DNA of 64,000 nucleotides, taken from an uncultured Christensenella sp. GTDB taxonomy: Bacteria > Bacillota > Clostridia > Christensenellales > DTU072. The stretch spans positions 19,387 to 83,386 of the forward strand of contig CASDZI010000007.1 in NCBI GenBank assembly GCA_949285605.1, in the 5' to 3' direction. Below the pieces are notes generated by a model. It searched no databases, was not told the DNA's origin, and saw only the letters and a program-made list of their open reading frames with translations. Position numbers and translations under genes: made by a program. The stretch's first letter is position 1; every line of letters begins with the position of its first letter. This document shows positions 9,359-19,487 of the stretch, one piece after another.

Positions 9359-9524
9359 AAATATCCTCTTGCAAAATTATTTTCCGATAAATTATAACAC
9401 ATTTTAGAAGCAAAATCAAAATGAAGTATGGTAATTTGCTTTCTGAAGTTTACACCAATGCGAGAGTTAATAATGAAACAACCGTATTGTCAATAAGACA
9501 AAATAATGATAAAATCATAAAAAG

Positions 9525-10082
9525 ATGGACAAGCGTGTTTTTAGATGTAATTATCTTATAAAAAAGATTCAAAAAGGGAACGAAAAGGCGTTAGACGAGT
9601 TATTTAAGGAATACGGAGCGCTTTTTCTCAACATGGCAAAAAAATATCTTTTCGATAAAAGCTATGCGGAAGATTTGTTGAGCGAAATGTTTTTGGAATT
9701 GTTAAAAAAGGAAGCACGGAGTTTTGACGAAAATAAAAATGGACTTAATTGGATTTTTACCATTATCAGAAGAAAGGCTTATCGTTTAAACGAACGAAAT
9801 AACTGTTCTTTTATTTTCGACGGGACAGAATACGGAAAGCATTTATCGGAGTATTTTGCTTATGAAGATAATCCTTTTTCCGAAAATTCTTTAGATAAAA
9901 CGCTTTTGAAGAAAGCGTTGGATACATTGACAGAAGAAGAAAACAAAATAATATATTATAAATATTGGGAAGGTTTGACGGTAAGGGAAATTGCTGGCGA
10001 AATGAATATACCTCGCTCTACCATTCAATATAAAATTAAAGAAATTTTATCAAAATTGAAAGAGTATTGGAACGGGAGATAG
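9525..10082 (+). CDS. ECF-type sigma-70 family RNA polymerase sigma factor
   Basis: 185-aa ORF. Region 2-like segment (LDELFKEYGALFLNMAKKYL..AEDLLSEMFLELL) and region 4 HTH (LTEEENKIIYYKYWEGLTVREIAGEMNIPRSTIQYKI). Confidence 0.8.
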   Translation: MDKRVFRCNYLIKKIQKGNEKALDELFKEYGALFLNMAKKYLFDKSYAEDLLSEMFLELLKKEARSFDENKNGLNWIFTIIRRKAYRLNERNNCSFIFDGTEYGKHLSEYFAYEDNPFSENSLDKTLLKKALDTLTEEENKIIYYKYWEGLTVREIAGEMNIPRSTIQYKIKEILSKLKEYWNGR

Positions 10083-10087
10083 TGAAA

Positions 10088-10780
10088 ATGAGGAAAAAAG
10101 ATATAGAAAGCAAGATAGTAGGTTCTTTGGAAGACGTTTCCCCTTTGAATTCGCAAATTCTGAATGCGGCTAAAGAAGAAATGAAAGAGTGCAAAAAGAA
10201 ATGCGGGAAAAGAAACGTTTTCAAATATGCGTTTGTTTGTTTTGTGTCCGCAATTTTGTGCATAGCTATAGTTTTGACCGTAAAATACGTACAAAAGGAT
10301 AATTCAGGTGCATTGCCGGACGGATATTCGGAATTAAAATATGTTTCTATGTCCGACTATTTAACGGAACACGGAATTGCTCTTACCGCTTACGATCGTT
10401 TGTTTGATGACGGGCTGGGTACAGAATCTGGCAATTCGGGAAGCGACCATTACGTTTCGACGGGGTGCAATGTAGTTTTCTATAACGGGGAAGAAGTTTG
10501 CATAACAGAAAATTACGATTTTTACGTTACCGATAAGATCACGGTTTCTATTTTGTTGTCCGATAAAGGCAGTGCGGAAAAAGATTTGTTTGAAGAATAT
10601 ATTGCTTTACAGGAAAATATGACCGTCATGGGAACAGAAATAGAGTACTCTTTCGACGAAAAAAAATCAGAAGGAAAAGCCAAATTTGTTTATAAAGAAT
10701 ATAAAATTTATATGAATTTCGTGACTTCCTCTAAAAGTTCTATGATAAGTCACTTGCAAACTTTTATCATTTTACAATAA
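10088..10780 (+). CDS. Single-pass membrane protein, candidate anti-sigma factor
   Basis: It lies immediately after, and overlaps, the sigma gene. ATG 10088 has a GGGAGA RBS; the track's TTG 10067 is an alternative start. Short cytoplasmic N-terminus, one TM helix (FVCFVSAILCIAIVLTV), then an extracytoplasmic domain. The function is inferred from position only. Confidence 0.45.
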   Translation: MRKKDIESKIVGSLEDVSPLNSQILNAAKEEMKECKKKCGKRNVFKYAFVCFVSAILCIAIVLTVKYVQKDNSGALPDGYSELKYVSMSDYLTEHGIALTAYDRLFDDGLGTESGNSGSDHYVSTGCNVVFYNGEEVCITENYDFYVTDKITVSILLSDKGSAEKDLFEEYIALQENMTVMGTEIEYSFDEKKSEGKAKFVYKEYKIYMNFVTSSKSSMISHLQTFIILQ

Positions 10781-10855
10781 TTTTTTGTTTTTTCTTTGGA
10801 CATAACCGATATTCTCGCCCTAATTATTTATAAAAGAATATCGGAGGTGTCTTAA

Positions 10856-11476
10856 ATGAAAAGCTTATTAAAATTTAGTAAATTATTTTTCATTCTTATT
10901 TCGGTATTTTTGTTATTTATTTTCTCTTCGTGTGAAAAATCTATCACTGAAACAGATAATTCGGGAACAGAAAACACGATTTATAATTATATGGATTTTA
11001 AATTTGTTTCTAATGAAATATTATCGTTGGAATACGCTTACGACCAAAATATAGTTTCGCAAAACGATATAAGAAGTATAGGTTTTTATCATAACGGAGG
11101 GAAAGAGTGGAAAGGCGAAATAGGCGAAGAGGTAAAAATAGAAGATTTTATCGTTACCGATTATCGTCCGATTAACAAGGATCCGTCTGTTCTTTCCGCC
11201 GAACAAAAACAAAAAATCAAAGAACTTTACGCACAATATCTTAACGATGCTATTAAATACTTTTATGAAAATCAAGGATTAAACATTAAAATCGATTTAA
11301 TCAAAGCCGATGACGTTAAAATAATCGATTATTACGGAGTTTATAACGATTATGCGGCGGTTTTAATCAAACATAACGATATGGGTTTACAGAAAATCGA
11401 AACGCCCGTTATCGCAGGGGTTGCGTTCTATTATCCGAACAGCGAAGAAACGATATTGCTGATCGGCAAAATATAA
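10856..11476 (+). CDS. Lipoprotein of unknown function
   Basis: 206-aa ORF with GGAGG RBS. Signal peptide ending in the lipobox FSSC (LLFIFSSCEKS). Confidence 0.6.
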   Translation: MKSLLKFSKLFFILISVFLLFIFSSCEKSITETDNSGTENTIYNYMDFKFVSNEILSLEYAYDQNIVSQNDIRSIGFYHNGGKEWKGEIGEEVKIEDFIVTDYRPINKDPSVLSAEQKQKIKELYAQYLNDAIKYFYENQGLNIKIDLIKADDVKIIDYYGVYNDYAAVLIKHNDMGLQKIETPVIAGVAFYYPNSEETILLIGKI

Positions 11477-11502
11477 AAAAATTATTGATTTTGGAGGCGA
11501 CT

Positions 11503-14070
11503 ATGAAAAACAAAGTATTAAGCATCAACAAAACATTATTAGTTGTAGTTTTTTTTATGATACTTTTGATAGGATTTTTAACAAATAGTTCAACTAATGC
11601 ATATGCAATAAATAATGGCACTGAATTATTTGAAGAAAAAATATATTGTAATACAACAATTGATGAAGATTTTGATGAGAGTTGTGTTTTGGTTGTTATA
11701 GATAAATATCATAGTGAAGTTAACAAAGTATATGATAAAAATTTTTTTGGGGATGTCTCAATAAGGGAAGTTGAAGATTTAACGAGTTTTAACAGTAATA
11801 TAGATAACTTGGATTATTTAAATCTGCAAGAATTTAGGCAGATATTAAAATTGGAACTTGAAGAACCTTCCAAACAAAATGTTTTAGATACTATCCATTC
11901 TATCGAGAATATAGATGGAGTGTTAAGTGCCTCGCCAAGTCATTATTTAAGGGATTGTACTTTACCTGGATGTGTGACTGGAGAAAATTATACAAATTTA
12001 TGGGGTTTACATGGAGACTATGGTATTAATGCTGAAGAAGCTTGGGAAATAACGACAGGGAATAGTGGTGTAAGAGTTGGAATAATAGATACAGGTGTTG
12101 ATAATCATAATGATTTATCAGGGAATTTAGTTACAGGGTGGAATGTGCTTGTTGATAATGCGACTCAAACAGATAATGTTGGACACGGGACACATATAGC
12201 AGGGACAATAGGCGCAAATGGGGAAAATATTAATGGTATTGTTGGCGTCTCTCCAAATGTATCATTGGTACCAATACAAGCGGCGATTGGTTTGCCAGTG
12301 CCTATTCTTAATATGGTCATACCTATTCTTAATGAAGAAACCTGCGTAGCAGGAATTGAATGGGCAATAGAAAATAATATAGATATAATTAACTTTAGTA
12401 TAGGTGGTTATTCTGAAACTTTAGCGTTAAAAACAGCTATTTCTAATTACACAGGATTGTTTGTTTGTGCGGCAGGTAATGGAATAAAAAATGATTTAGG
12501 AGAATATGAGGGAGTTAATACCGATGTTACGCCACATTATCCATCATGTTATAATCATGGGGAAGAATTTAGTGATAGAGTTATTTCGGTTGGCGCCATG
12601 AGTGAAAATGGTGTGCGTACATATTTTTCTAACTATGGCGCAACCTCTGTCGATATTTTTGCTCCAGGTGAAAACATTTTAAGTACAGTGCCTAACAGTA
12701 TATCAAATAGCGGATATGCGTATTTTAACGGTACTTCTATGGCAACTCCTCATGTTGTAGGAACAGCGGCTTTACTATATTCACAATTCTTAAGAAATTC
12801 TCATAATTTAACTAGGAGCGAAATAGCAGTATTAATTAAATCTATAATCATAAAAAATGCTACTATAGATGTTGAATTTTCAGGGAAATGTGTTGCCGGT
12901 GGACGCCTTAATGCTTATAAAGCACTTTCAAATAACTCATATAAACAAGTGATGACAGGGTTTGGTTATTATTCAACTTTAAGACATTGGCATGGGAAAG
13001 TAGATCTTCTTATAAATAATATTTCTTCTTTTTATACTAATTCAGATAATAGACTAGTTGTTACTAAAGTAACTGATTTAGTATTTTCTGTTGGGACTAA
13101 AAGTGCATATAATACTTGGCATGAAATTAATGGAACAGTTACTTTTGAATTAAAAAACAGTGCGGGGGAAATTATACAAATAAATAATAATAATACATTT
13201 ACAAGTACTATAAGAGTGGGATTAATTAGCAATACATCATACACTAATCGTGGTTTTACAATCAATTCTGCAAATTTGCCAAACGATACTTATACATTAT
13301 TATTAAATTGTTATACAAGTAGAGACGGGCAAGGGCAAACTAGCTCAGCATCTTTTACATTTATTATAAATAAATCTTCATGCATTGCAGCGGGCAGTCT
13401 AATAACATTATCCGACGGGAGTCAGGTCGCAGTAGAAAATCTTGTTGGGAATGAAGAACTACTTGTGTGGAATATGCAAACGGGAAGCTTTGATGTAGCA
13501 CCAATATTTTTTATTGATAATGACCCTTTTAGCACATACGAAGTTATAGAATTAACTTTTTCAGATAATTCTAAAGTACAGATTATAGATGAACATGCTT
13601 TTTTTAATGCTACAATTGGTAAATATGTATTTTTAACAAACAATGCAGATCAATATATTGGACATTATTTCAATAAATACAATAACATAGGTGGTCAAAA
13701 CGACTGGAATACGGTGCAACTAGTAAACGTAGAAATTTTTACTACTCAAACTTCGGCTTGGAGTCCTGTAACTTATGGACATTTATGTTATTATGTTAAT
13801 GGTATGCTATCCTTACCTGGTGGAATAGAAATATTAACAAATATTTTCGATGTGGATACCGAATTAATGAAATATGACTTAATCTCATTTAATCAAGATA
13901 TTAATGAATATGGATTATTTAGTTATGAAGAATTTTGCTTAATTTGGGATGTGCCCGAGGTCTTTTTTGAAGCTTTTAACGGGAAATATCTTAAAGTGGC
14001 GTTAGGTAAAGAATTGATTTCGATAGAGGATGTAACTTTATTAATAGAAAGATACCAAAATTTATTTTAA
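11503..14070 (+). CDS. Secreted S8 subtilisin-family serine peptidase with C-terminal Hint (Hedgehog/intein-type) domain
   Basis: ATG 11503 follows a GGAGG RBS. Signal peptide MKNKVLSINKTLLVVVFFMILLIGFLTNSSTNAYA. I9-like propeptide. Catalytic Asp (VGIIDTGVD), His (HGTHIAGTIG), oxyanion Asn (CAAGNG) and Ser (NGTSMATPHVVGTAALL). A beta-rich middle region follows, then the Hint-like CIAAGSLITLSDGSQVAVENL ... QIIDEHAFF ... GHLCYYVNGMLS. Confidence 0.85.
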   Translation: MKNKVLSINKTLLVVVFFMILLIGFLTNSSTNAYAINNGTELFEEKIYCNTTIDEDFDESCVLVVIDKYHSEVNKVYDKNFFGDVSIREVEDLTSFNSNIDNLDYLNLQEFRQILKLELEEPSKQNVLDTIHSIENIDGVLSASPSHYLRDCTLPGCVTGENYTNLWGLHGDYGINAEEAWEITTGNSGVRVGIIDTGVDNHNDLSGNLVTGWNVLVDNATQTDNVGHGTHIAGTIGANGENINGIVGVSPNVSLVPIQAAIGLPVPILNMVIPILNEETCVAGIEWAIENNIDIINFSIGGYSETLALKTAISNYTGLFVCAAGNGIKNDLGEYEGVNTDVTPHYPSCYNHGEEFSDRVISVGAMSENGVRTYFSNYGATSVDIFAPGENILSTVPNSISNSGYAYFNGTSMATPHVVGTAALLYSQFLRNSHNLTRSEIAVLIKSIIIKNATIDVEFSGKCVAGGRLNAYKALSNNSYKQVMTGFGYYSTLRHWHGKVDLLINNISSFYTNSDNRLVVTKVTDLVFSVGTKSAYNTWHEINGTVTFELKNSAGEIIQINNNNTFTSTIRVGLISNTSYTNRGFTINSANLPNDTYTLLLNCYTSRDGQGQTSSASFTFIINKSSCIAAGSLITLSDGSQVAVENLVGNEELLVWNMQTGSFDVAPIFFIDNDPFSTYEVIELTFSDNSKVQIIDEHAFFNATIGKYVFLTNNADQYIGHYFNKYNNIGGQNDWNTVQLVNVEIFTTQTSAWSPVTYGHLCYYVNGMLSLPGGIEILTNIFDVDTELMKYDLISFNQDINEYGLFSYEEFCLIWDVPEVFFEAFNGKYLKVALGKELISIEDVTLLIERYQNLF

Positions 14071-14090
14071 AATGAATTACCACTTATTGT

Positions 14091-14126
14091 AATTAGAATG
14101 CGCCTTTTTTAAGGCGCATTCTAATT
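14091..14126. terminator. Perfect 14-bp-stem hairpin at right end of the AT-rich cassette (putative terminator)
   Basis: aattagaatgcgcc (14091-14104) pairs with ggcgcattctaatt (14113-14126), with loop ttttttaa. There is no clear U-tract after the stem, so terminator function is uncertain. Confidence 0.5.
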
Positions 14127-14212
14127 AGAGGCATTGATAAAGATACTTTCAAAAACTATTTTTTTGTATTATCATAATAATAATAATAATTCGATTTAAG
14201 AGGAGACGGAAT

Positions 14213-19281: not shown

Positions 19282-19487
19282 TGAAAGAGATAATCAATAC
19301 TCCTTACGTCTATAAAAACGGAGAACTTTACGCCACCGGCAATACCGTCGTCACCGTCGTGGAAGATCCTGTGGCGATAAAGCTGCCGCCCTGTGCTCCG
19401 TGTTTTCCTTTTGCGGTAAACACCCGTTGCATAAACAGGAACGCTTTCTGTGATAGGTTAAGGTGTTTATTAAGATGTTTTCGCTAA
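19281..19487 (+). CDS. Small hypothetical protein (68 aa) with Cys-rich C-terminus
   Basis: Translationally coupled to the preceding ORF, with GGAGG upstream. Six Cys in the last 31 residues (PPCAPCFPFAVNTRCINRNAFCDRLRCLLRCFR). The distal half uses rarer codons, so the true extent is uncertain. Confidence 0.35.
   Translation: MKEIINTPYVYKNGELYATGNTVVTVVEDPVAIKLPPCAPCFPFAVNTRCINRNAFCDRLRCLLRCFR

Follow-up and report, generated by a model that had tools for sequence, protein, structure and literature searches.

Gene organization and protein layout

The window analyzed here is a 64-kb stretch of DNA (64,000 nucleotides; positions 19,387 to 83,386 of contig CASDZI010000007.1, assembly GCA_949285605.1) from an uncultured Christensenella sp., and it carries a gene for a secreted S8 protease (subtilase) whose C-terminus is a 229-residue module that starts at Cys633 and consists of a Hint domain and a helical tail. 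This gene, referred to as the S8-Hint gene, its domains and its neighbors are listed in Table 1. Residue numbers follow the 861 aa frame of the mechanical open reading frame (ORF) 11485-14070 on the plus strand, which opens at a TTG at 11485; the true start is very probably the ATG at 11503, giving an 855 aa product. Assemblies in ENA, Logan and NCBI contain the identical 855 aa product, which is found on several contigs, both metagenomic and from NCBI. Public records give it no name, and its precomputed annotation consists of Peptidase_S8 only.

A Pfam scan of the window protein assigns the protease domain to PF00082 at 156 bits against a cut-off of 21.8, and the motif positions in the translation place the catalytic triad at Asp202 (DTG), His234 (HGTH) and Ser418 (GTSMA). 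The beta-rich spacer that follows has no Pfam match. Cys633 is encoded by the TGC codon at 13381-13383, directly after ..NKSS, and opens the stretch C633IAAGSLITLSDGSQVAVENL. An earlier reading of the letters alone (the sequence-only reading) had proposed a Hint-type module at this position from the motifs CIAAGSLITLSDGSQVAVENL, QIIDEHAFF and GHLCYYVNGMLSLPGG, all of which are present in the translation as quoted.

Table 1. Features of the S8-Hint gene and of the gene block it closes (window positions)
Feature	Position	Strand	Basis
ECF-type sigma factor	9525..10082	+	Pfam Sigma70_r2, Sigma70_r4, Sigma70_ECF
Membrane protein, no known family, anti-sigma position	10088..10780	+	ORF list
Small lipoprotein-like protein, lipobox ..FSSC, undescribed family, no Pfam match	10856..11476	+	
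S8-Hint gene, secreted S8 protease with C-terminal Hint+tail cassette, 855 aa	11503..14070	+	ORF list, database match
Predicted Sec signal peptide MKNKVLSINKTLLVVVFFMILLIGFLTNSSTNAYA, AYA cleavage motif	11503..11607	+	Read by eye from translation
Peptidase_S8 (subtilase) domain, residues 194-464	12064..12876	+	Pfam PF00082, E 1.3e-45
Beta-rich basic spacer between protease and cassette, isoelectric point (pI) about 9	12937..13377	+	Composition
Predicted scissile bond Ser632|Cys633 (TCA TGC); Cys633 = Hint Cys1	13378..13383	+	Translation
Predicted Hint domain, Cys633-Pro778	13381..13818	+	AlphaFold2, Foldseek, conservation, Hedgehog alignment
Asp678, Asp46 of the Hint domain	13516-13518	+	Hedgehog alignment, invariance
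His704, His72 (block B) of the Hint domain, in QIIDEHAFF	13594-13596	+	Translation, alignment
Hint blocks F/G: His766..Asn772-Gly773 and MLSLP strand; Pro778 at the intein terminal-Asn position	within 13381..13818	+	Alignment
Five-helix acidic tail, 83 aa, residues 779-861	13819..14067	+	AlphaFold2, alignment, composition
30-nt inverted repeat just past the stop codon	14077..14140	+	Repeat search

Structure of the Hint domain

Sequence comparison of the module with proteins of solved structure gives faint signals. Single-sequence and profile searches of the PDB returned only matches at E 0.1-1 (DnaB inteins, Hedgehog and Ataxin-1 AXH), the best of the single-sequence search being the NpuDnaB intein at E 0.6, and in NCBIfam the window protein has only a weak match over residues 630-708 to the intein-bearing DnaB model PRK07773 (E 2.8e-4). 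Close relatives are plentiful, with 153 homologues of the 236 aa C-terminal stretch at E<=1e-3 and a best value of 1e-88. When 56 of these were scanned singly, 18 matched PF01079 at E<=0.01 (best E 5.9e-6), and no other Hint-type Pfam model was matched among the 56. The closest sequence family supported by these scans is therefore the Hedgehog-type Hint, with Hog membership undemonstrated by profile score.

An AlphaFold2 model of the Hint domain and tail, built from an input alignment of these 56 homologues, reached a mean predicted local distance difference test score (pLDDT) of 92.1 and a predicted TM-score (pTM) of 0.87, with an all-beta part followed by five helices. Searching the PDB with this model in Foldseek gave 63 matches at E<=1e-3, of which the best 50 are all inteins, BIL domains or Hedgehog. 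Residues 633-778 align with the Ssp and Npu DnaB mini-inteins at E 1.5e-8, with a TM-score normalized to the target (TMt) of 0.75-0.81, and next with Tetrahymena BIL2 (3.4e-8), Hedgehog 1AT0 (9.4e-8) and a C. thermocellum BIL domain (2.6e-7). With a confident model and Foldseek values running from 1.5e-8 to 1e-5, residues 633-778 are predicted to have the Hint fold, and the structural comparison that the sequence-only reading had put forward as a check thus came out in its favor.

The N-terminal half of the Hint domain (module residues about 3-75, 13387-13605) also weakly resembles the AXH domain of Ataxin-1 (PDB 4J2J, E 0.1), and the homologue P0044 has a Pfam AXH match at E 0.083. This resemblance is probably noise or a distant similarity of fold or subdomain.

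Active-site residues and the chemistry they allow

Three residues of the predicted active site, Cys1, Asp46 and His72, are invariant in 69 of 69 genomic homologues and likewise in 45 complete proteins, which upholds the Cys1 and the block-B His picked out by the sequence-only reading. The residue before Cys1 is small or variable and mostly Ser (S 36, A 7, G 5, T 5 and others among the 69). In a HMMER profile-to-PDB comparison, profile positions 55-135 align with residues 249-329 of Drosophila Hedgehog, and because the aligned stretches are equal in length, C258, D303 and H329 of Hedgehog fall on Cys1, Asp46 and His72. An hhalign comparison with two Hedgehog sequences gave the same residue pairing at high local confidence, with an insignificant overall statistic. 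In human SHH the equivalent positions are D243, T267 and H270 (PMC7906309).

The end of the Hint core was aligned manually, pairing 'GHLCYYVNG-MLSLP-GG' with 'DHNFALKNG-FIASN-C' of Npu DnaE and 'TIVVNS-VAASC' of Hedgehog, in a way that is consistent with the strand positions of the AlphaFold2 model. The cassette retains the block F His and the NG turn, and at the position of the intein terminal Asn (Cys143 of Hedgehog) it has an invariant Pro. The translation lacks a terminal His-Asn at the end of the Hint core, and past the fixed 83-residue tail there is no C-extein or +1 Cys, Ser or Thr. As a result of the Pro at the Asn position and the missing +1 nucleophile and C-extein, splicing and C-terminal cleavage are excluded, and only N-terminal thioester chemistry is possible, as the sequence-only reading had predicted from the missing His-Asn. 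Asn772-Gly773 was considered as an intein-like cleavage site and rejected, as its counterpart is the block F/G beta-turn (NG in Npu DnaE) and not the terminal Asn.

The nine-residue junction between the Hint domain and the tail, VNGMLSMPG, is invariant in the protein while the third codon positions vary freely, which indicates that selection acts on the peptide. A site recognized at the DNA level was ruled out by the same variation.

The helical tail

The tail has a pLDDT above 90 in the context of the module and of 84.6 when modeled alone, with five helices, and on the basis of these models it appears to be compact and able to fold by itself. The high pTM (0.87) of Hint domain and tail modeled together suggests that the tail packs on the Hint domain as one body. 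Its sequence contains the conserved motifs NIF[DE]VD, YGL[FY]TYEEF and AFNGxYLKVxxGKG. No Pfam family matches the tail, and a Foldseek search with the tail-only model found nothing significant (best E 4.0 in the PDB and 2.7 in BFVD). The sequence-only reading had described about 84 residues without a recognizable motif; the absence of known relatives holds in Pfam, PDB and BFVD, while the size is corrected to 83 aa and the conserved motifs were missed. The tail does run to the stop codon as that reading had it, starting from 13816; the codon there is that of Pro and lies two residues ahead of the quoted 'GIEIL', a trivial offset. A dockerin-like or wall-binding identity of the tail was considered and is unsupported by the Pfam and Foldseek searches.

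A free-standing family of tails was also considered, as a search with the tail profile returned many proteins of 85-150 aa, and it was rejected. All of the short entries that were inspected begin at a Met internal to the module, and of three checked in their contigs, one is a gene-call truncation (L093, in which the Hint domain continues in frame) and two are genomic remnants that start exactly at ..VNGMLSMPGG or ..LCYYVNGVLSMPGG beside variable or phage-like regions. None of this points to an independent tail protein. Database fragments of this size commonly open at an internal Met (MPGG.., MCYYVNG..), and it seems that a multi-copy, conserved cassette breaks assemblies and gene calls, thereby hiding the family from annotation.

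The tail-only ORFs lie at 3001-3264 in contigs L089-L092 and at 4001-4270 in contigs L094-L096. One abuts a V-ATPase subunit D gene, with homology beginning at VNGMLSMPGG, and another, which begins at LCYYVNGVLSMPGG, comes after a FGGY kinase gene; the regions next to both differ between assemblies or look phage-like. Recombination at the invariant junction may have left these ORFs behind, or they may be the 3' ends of genes carried on integrative elements. At the other end of the tail, a subset of loci (L005, L007, L009, L010, L021, L032 and L072) have a low-complexity extension of 30-55 residues rich in His, Asn and Gly (GNHNGHGNGNHH..), several of which end in basic residues; these extensions are possibly metal-binding.

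Distribution and passengers

The module is far from confined to the subtilase. An exhaustive profile search returned 3,799 cluster representatives (50% identity) at E<=1e-3, of which 1,816 reach E<=1e-30. In the best 150 the match runs to the C-terminal end or stops no more than about 55 residues short of it, in proteins mostly of 500-1,950 aa. Collections with one genome per species yield 248 matches, whose titles are nearly all Clostridia, Christensenella, Christensenellaceae or related uncultured bacteria of gut, rumen and digester. Several genomes hold more than one copy, and paralogues with near-identical tails co-occur in a single genome; no second copy was found within the window. The module is always found within 90-150 residues of the stop codon. 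Among 70 genomic ORFs it is terminal in all, the stop lying 90-98 residues past the VNGMLS motif, 8 have an extra extension rich in His, Asn and Gly, and 48 of the 70 have a signal-peptide-like N-terminus, the remainder being mostly truncated.

The proteins that precede the module, referred to as passengers, share a mean pairwise identity of 17.5%; the Hint domain reaches 68% and the tail 58%. In 45 complete proteins the passengers carry Flg_new (28), BspA-type leucine-rich repeat (LRR) LRR_5 (27), Peptidase_S8 (9) or Trypsin_2 (2) domains, with M64, C10, alpha/beta-hydrolase and esterase domains found once each. No SLH, LPXTG or cell-wall-binding domain was found in these 45 passengers. Judging from these sequences, the Hint domain and tail constitute one generic C-terminal cassette on unrelated secreted passengers, of which the subtilase fusion is one of many. 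The framing of the sequence-only reading, which took the module for a peculiarity of one subtilase, was therefore too narrow, with S8 domains on about a fifth of passengers.

That reading had also pointed to a survey of genomes for the tail and its partners. The tail proved widespread and linked to Hint; a dedicated partner gene (transferase, immunity protein or receptor) did not emerge from all-against-all ORF clustering of 81 loci, in which the sole recurrent neighbor of the cassette is a small lipoprotein tied to S8-type passengers. The lack of a conserved neighbor gene fits an autonomous device. No published description of the Hint+tail family was found in full-text literature searches, and the database entries looked at are unnamed or called 'hypothetical protein'.

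Proposed maturation and alternative explanations

The best explanation of these data is that surface proteins of Christensenellales share the cassette as a general device for their maturation or sorting, one that is not specific to subtilases. As a whole, the description of the module as a self-contained C-terminal Hint autoprocessing cassette of Hog-like architecture, with transfer as the favored resolution of its thioester, is judged somewhat probable. Its parts differ in strength: from the sequence it is likely that the Hint domain is active as an N-terminal autoprocessing domain, whereas the transfer of the passenger to a specific acceptor is a tentative proposal on the doubtful side. In laying out the mechanism, homology suggests that after export and folding the thiol of Cys633 would attack the carbonyl of Ser632 in an N-to-S acyl shift assisted by His704, so that the Ser632-Cys633 peptide bond would become a thioester. 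An external nucleophile would then resolve the thioester and part the passenger, consisting of the pro-subtilase and spacer, from the 229 aa module. In the least certain steps, Asp678 (Asp46, D303 of Hedgehog) and the Hint-packed tail would most likely select or activate the resolving nucleophile, and the passenger would leave with a C-terminal adduct, plausibly an anchoring component of the cell envelope, instead of a free acid.

Asp46 of Hedgehog is required for sterol transfer and dispensable for thioester formation and hydrolysis. Hog-like transfer is favored here because Asp46 is invariant, the tail is tightly conserved and the adhesin-type passengers have no other anchor. Carried to its full extent, the proposal would have secreted adhesins and hydrolases attached covalently and without an enzyme, through their C-terminal carboxyl, to an envelope lipid, glycan or peptidoglycan, or to a gut sterol or bile acid, with the tail picking the acceptor. 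Such a sortase-independent display would be a prokaryotic counterpart, and possibly a precursor, of Hog; in this extended form the proposal is conjectural and rather unlikely.

Several observations weigh against autoprocessing with Hog-like transfer. The window protein matches no Hint family in Pfam, including no PF01079 match at E<=1, and the best PF01079 scores of its homologues (26.3-26.5 bits) lie below the curated cut-off of 29.7; the Hint-type match that the sequence-only reading had looked to HHpred or Pfam to provide was thus seen in sub-threshold form in the 18 homologues and not in the window protein. Position 69, the Thr of the TxxH motif elsewhere, is Ile or Val in the 69 genomic homologues. 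An Asp near position 46 is presumably also present in some inteins, such as Mtu RecA and Npu DnaE, so the invariant Asp46 is not proof of transfer chemistry. A global hhalign comparison gave no meaningful alignment of the tail with the sterol-recognition region (SRR) of Hedgehog, and the acidic, soluble tail (pI 4.05) is unlike that amphipathic region. Only 3-6 residues separate the folded passenger from Cys1, so that there is no stalk to span the wall. Viral contigs contain C-terminal Hint domains that lack the tail, and neither an acceptor molecule nor a gene for acceptor synthesis was identified.

For these reasons, namely the lack of an acceptor or partner, the acidic soluble tail, the missing stalk and the tail-less viral Hint domains, plain hydrolysis of the thioester stays a serious rival. 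In such self-removal the cassette would be a disposable helper of folding or export, or a timed release switch, no adduct would be formed, and the tail would stabilize or regulate the Hint domain. The catalytic evidence supports this as well as it supports transfer, many passengers are hydrolases able to act in solution, and the viral Hint domains, ending in 'YFVNGLLSGN..stop', make simple self-removal viable for a C-terminal Hint. Nonetheless, a domain of 83 aa that averages 58% identity and whose polar and aromatic motifs are invariant is under much constraint for a passive appendage, most passengers are LRR or Flg_new arrays of adhesin type that are normally anchored and none of which has another anchor, and the invariant Asp46 would be unneeded for hydrolysis as it is understood in Hedgehog. 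Self-removal alone is accordingly considered unlikely, if worth keeping in view.

The viral relatives from IMG/VR are remote (26-29% identity; L086 2887-3441 and L087 2632-3549) and are short proteins that end in the Hint domain. They share the '..[FY][FV][AV]NG[IL]L[ST]..' strand, and the tail is absent or only about 35 residues long; L087 reads 'ANGILTSC', which is nearer to motif J of Hedgehog.

A second alternative would have the tail bind a surface partner non-covalently, with the Hint domain acting as a silent scaffold or as a shedding switch that depends on a cue. Among the conserved features of these proteins the cassette alone is a candidate anchor, its tail is predicted to fold independently, and the block-B Thr is missing, all of which could suit such a role. 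The strict invariance of Cys1, Asp46 and His72 speaks against a silent Hint domain, however, and the tail is single-copy and unrepeated, too acidic for a typical Gram-positive wall-binding domain and without a linked partner gene, making this explanation improbable. A polymorphic-toxin role, in which a pre-toxin HINT domain would free the tail as a small toxin or signal aimed at competitors, is highly improbable: HINT does directly precede the C-terminal toxin in many Sec-exported polymorphic toxins (PMC3482391), and the tail-only remnants beside variable islands superficially resemble orphan cassettes, but the polarity is reversed (constant C-terminus, variable N-terminus), there is no Pfam PT-HINT match or conserved downstream immunity gene, several paralogues with near-identical tails occur in one genome, and the missing intein-type C-terminal cleavage residues mean that Hint chemistry could not separate the tail from the Hint domain.

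Comparison with known Hint systems

Of the known systems, the Hog domain of Hedgehog is the nearest in layout. Both are C-terminal on a protein with a signal peptide, have the Hint fold (1AT0 for Hedgehog) with colinear Cys1, Asp46 and His72, lack a terminal Asn and C-extein, and end in a helical extension of about 80 residues without a structural homologue, as has been noted for the Hedgehog SRR (PMC7906309). In contrast to Hog, the cassette is bacterial, its PF01079 scores are sub-threshold and its block-B Thr is replaced by Ile or Val. Where Hedgehog motif J reads 'ASCYA' the cassette has 'LSMPG', with Pro replacing Cys143, and the amphipathic helix-loop-helix of the SRR has no sequence similarity to the acidic five-helix bundle of the tail. 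Motif J and the SRR motifs K and L, as defined by Buerglin 2008 (PMC2362128), are not matched; the cassette junction is MLS[ML]PG, and hhalign over the tail gives nothing meaningful. The cassette is laid out like a Hog domain and would work like one, yet it fails Hog membership, being sub-threshold and lacking motifs J, K and L. A sterol is an unlikely acceptor.

BIL domains, represented by C. thermocellum 2LWY and BIL2 of Tetrahymena BUBL (6Y75), are also Hint domains in secreted, variable bacterial proteins that cleave without splicing, and their Foldseek similarity to the module is comparable to that of inteins (E 3e-8 to 3e-7). That a Hint thioester can serve for conjugation is known from the BUBL BILs. 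BIL domains are internal with flanks on both sides, and the A-type keeps His-Asn, whereas the cassette is terminal with a fixed tail and has Pro. In the absence of His-Asn and of any Hint_2 or BIL-type Pfam match, the likeness to BIL domains is structural only (2LWY, E 2.6e-7). Inteins supply the best structural matches, which are DnaB and RecA mini-inteins in the TMt range given above, and block A, the block B His, the block F His and the 'NG' turn remain recognizable; in contrast to inteins, the cassette has no terminal Asn, +1 Cys, Ser or Thr, C-extein or homing endonuclease and is unable to splice.

The pre-toxin HINT domain PF07591, which is predicted to act by autoproteolysis (PMC3482391), likewise sits near the C-terminus of large Sec-exported multidomain proteins. 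There the C-terminus is hypervariable and immunity genes are present, while here the tail is constant and the passengers vary; no PF07591 match was found, tail identity is 58% and no downstream gene recurs. As functional analogues only, the sortase LPXTG signal and the C-terminal domain of the type IX secretion system (T9SS) are constant C-terminal elements found on unrelated secreted passengers within one lineage. Those elements are removed during attachment to an envelope acceptor and depend on a dedicated transpeptidase, whereas the cassette would bring its own chemistry, no gene for such an enzyme was found linked to it, and its attachment is hypothetical.

Poorly characterized proteobacterial and myxobacterial proteins with C-terminal Hint-like domains were described by Buerglin 2008, who traced Hog domains only to early eukaryotes (PMC2362128). 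From its sequence features the cassette can be regarded as a new Hint family whose Hog-like architecture includes a new accessory domain, set apart from Hog, inteins, BIL A/B and PT-HINT.

Christensenellales live in the gut in association with a host and are difficult to grow in culture. An active cassette would mean that much of their predicted surface proteome matures by autocatalytic Hint chemistry, including BspA-type LRR adhesins, Listeria-Bacteroides-repeat proteins and S8, trypsin-like, M64 and C10 proteases. Passage of the thioester to a specific acceptor would make the cassette a new bacterial route of protein anchoring or lipidation and the first bacterial system with the full logic of Hog, a Hint domain with an adduct-selecting domain, which would bear on the origin of Hedgehog autoprocessing. 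The compact and conserved unit could also serve in C-terminal protein labeling. For annotation, the pattern ..C[IV]AxG[ST]LITLADG .. EH .. VNGMLSMPG .. YGLFTYEEF .. offers a rule for more than 1,800 unnamed protein clusters.

Genomic context

The S8-Hint gene is the last of a four-gene, same-strand block (window 9400-14150), in which it follows the genes for the ECF sigma factor, membrane protein and lipoprotein. The block has a G+C content of about 32% compared with about 49% in the surrounding DNA, and this difference in composition suggests that it was recently acquired; no integrase or flanking direct repeats were found around it. Cassette genes in other genomes average about 5 points of G+C below their flanks. 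The inverted repeat past the stop codon is probably a terminator hairpin closing the block.

At the head of the block, the membrane protein gene overlaps that of the ECF sigma factor (9525-10780), and its gene calls of 230 and 237 aa have no Pfam match. The same ECF sigma family lies upstream of the cassette in 5 loci. This arrangement suggests control of the protease operon by an envelope signal.

In 18 of 81 loci the lipoprotein-like family directly precedes the cassette gene, frequently as 2-4 tandem copies, and it is present beside 8 of the 12 S8-type passengers recognized by a motif test. The lipoprotein might inhibit or chaperone the protease or be its substrate. Members of the family are seen, for example, in L043 (1554-3841), L054 (113-4049) and L035 (1787-4115).

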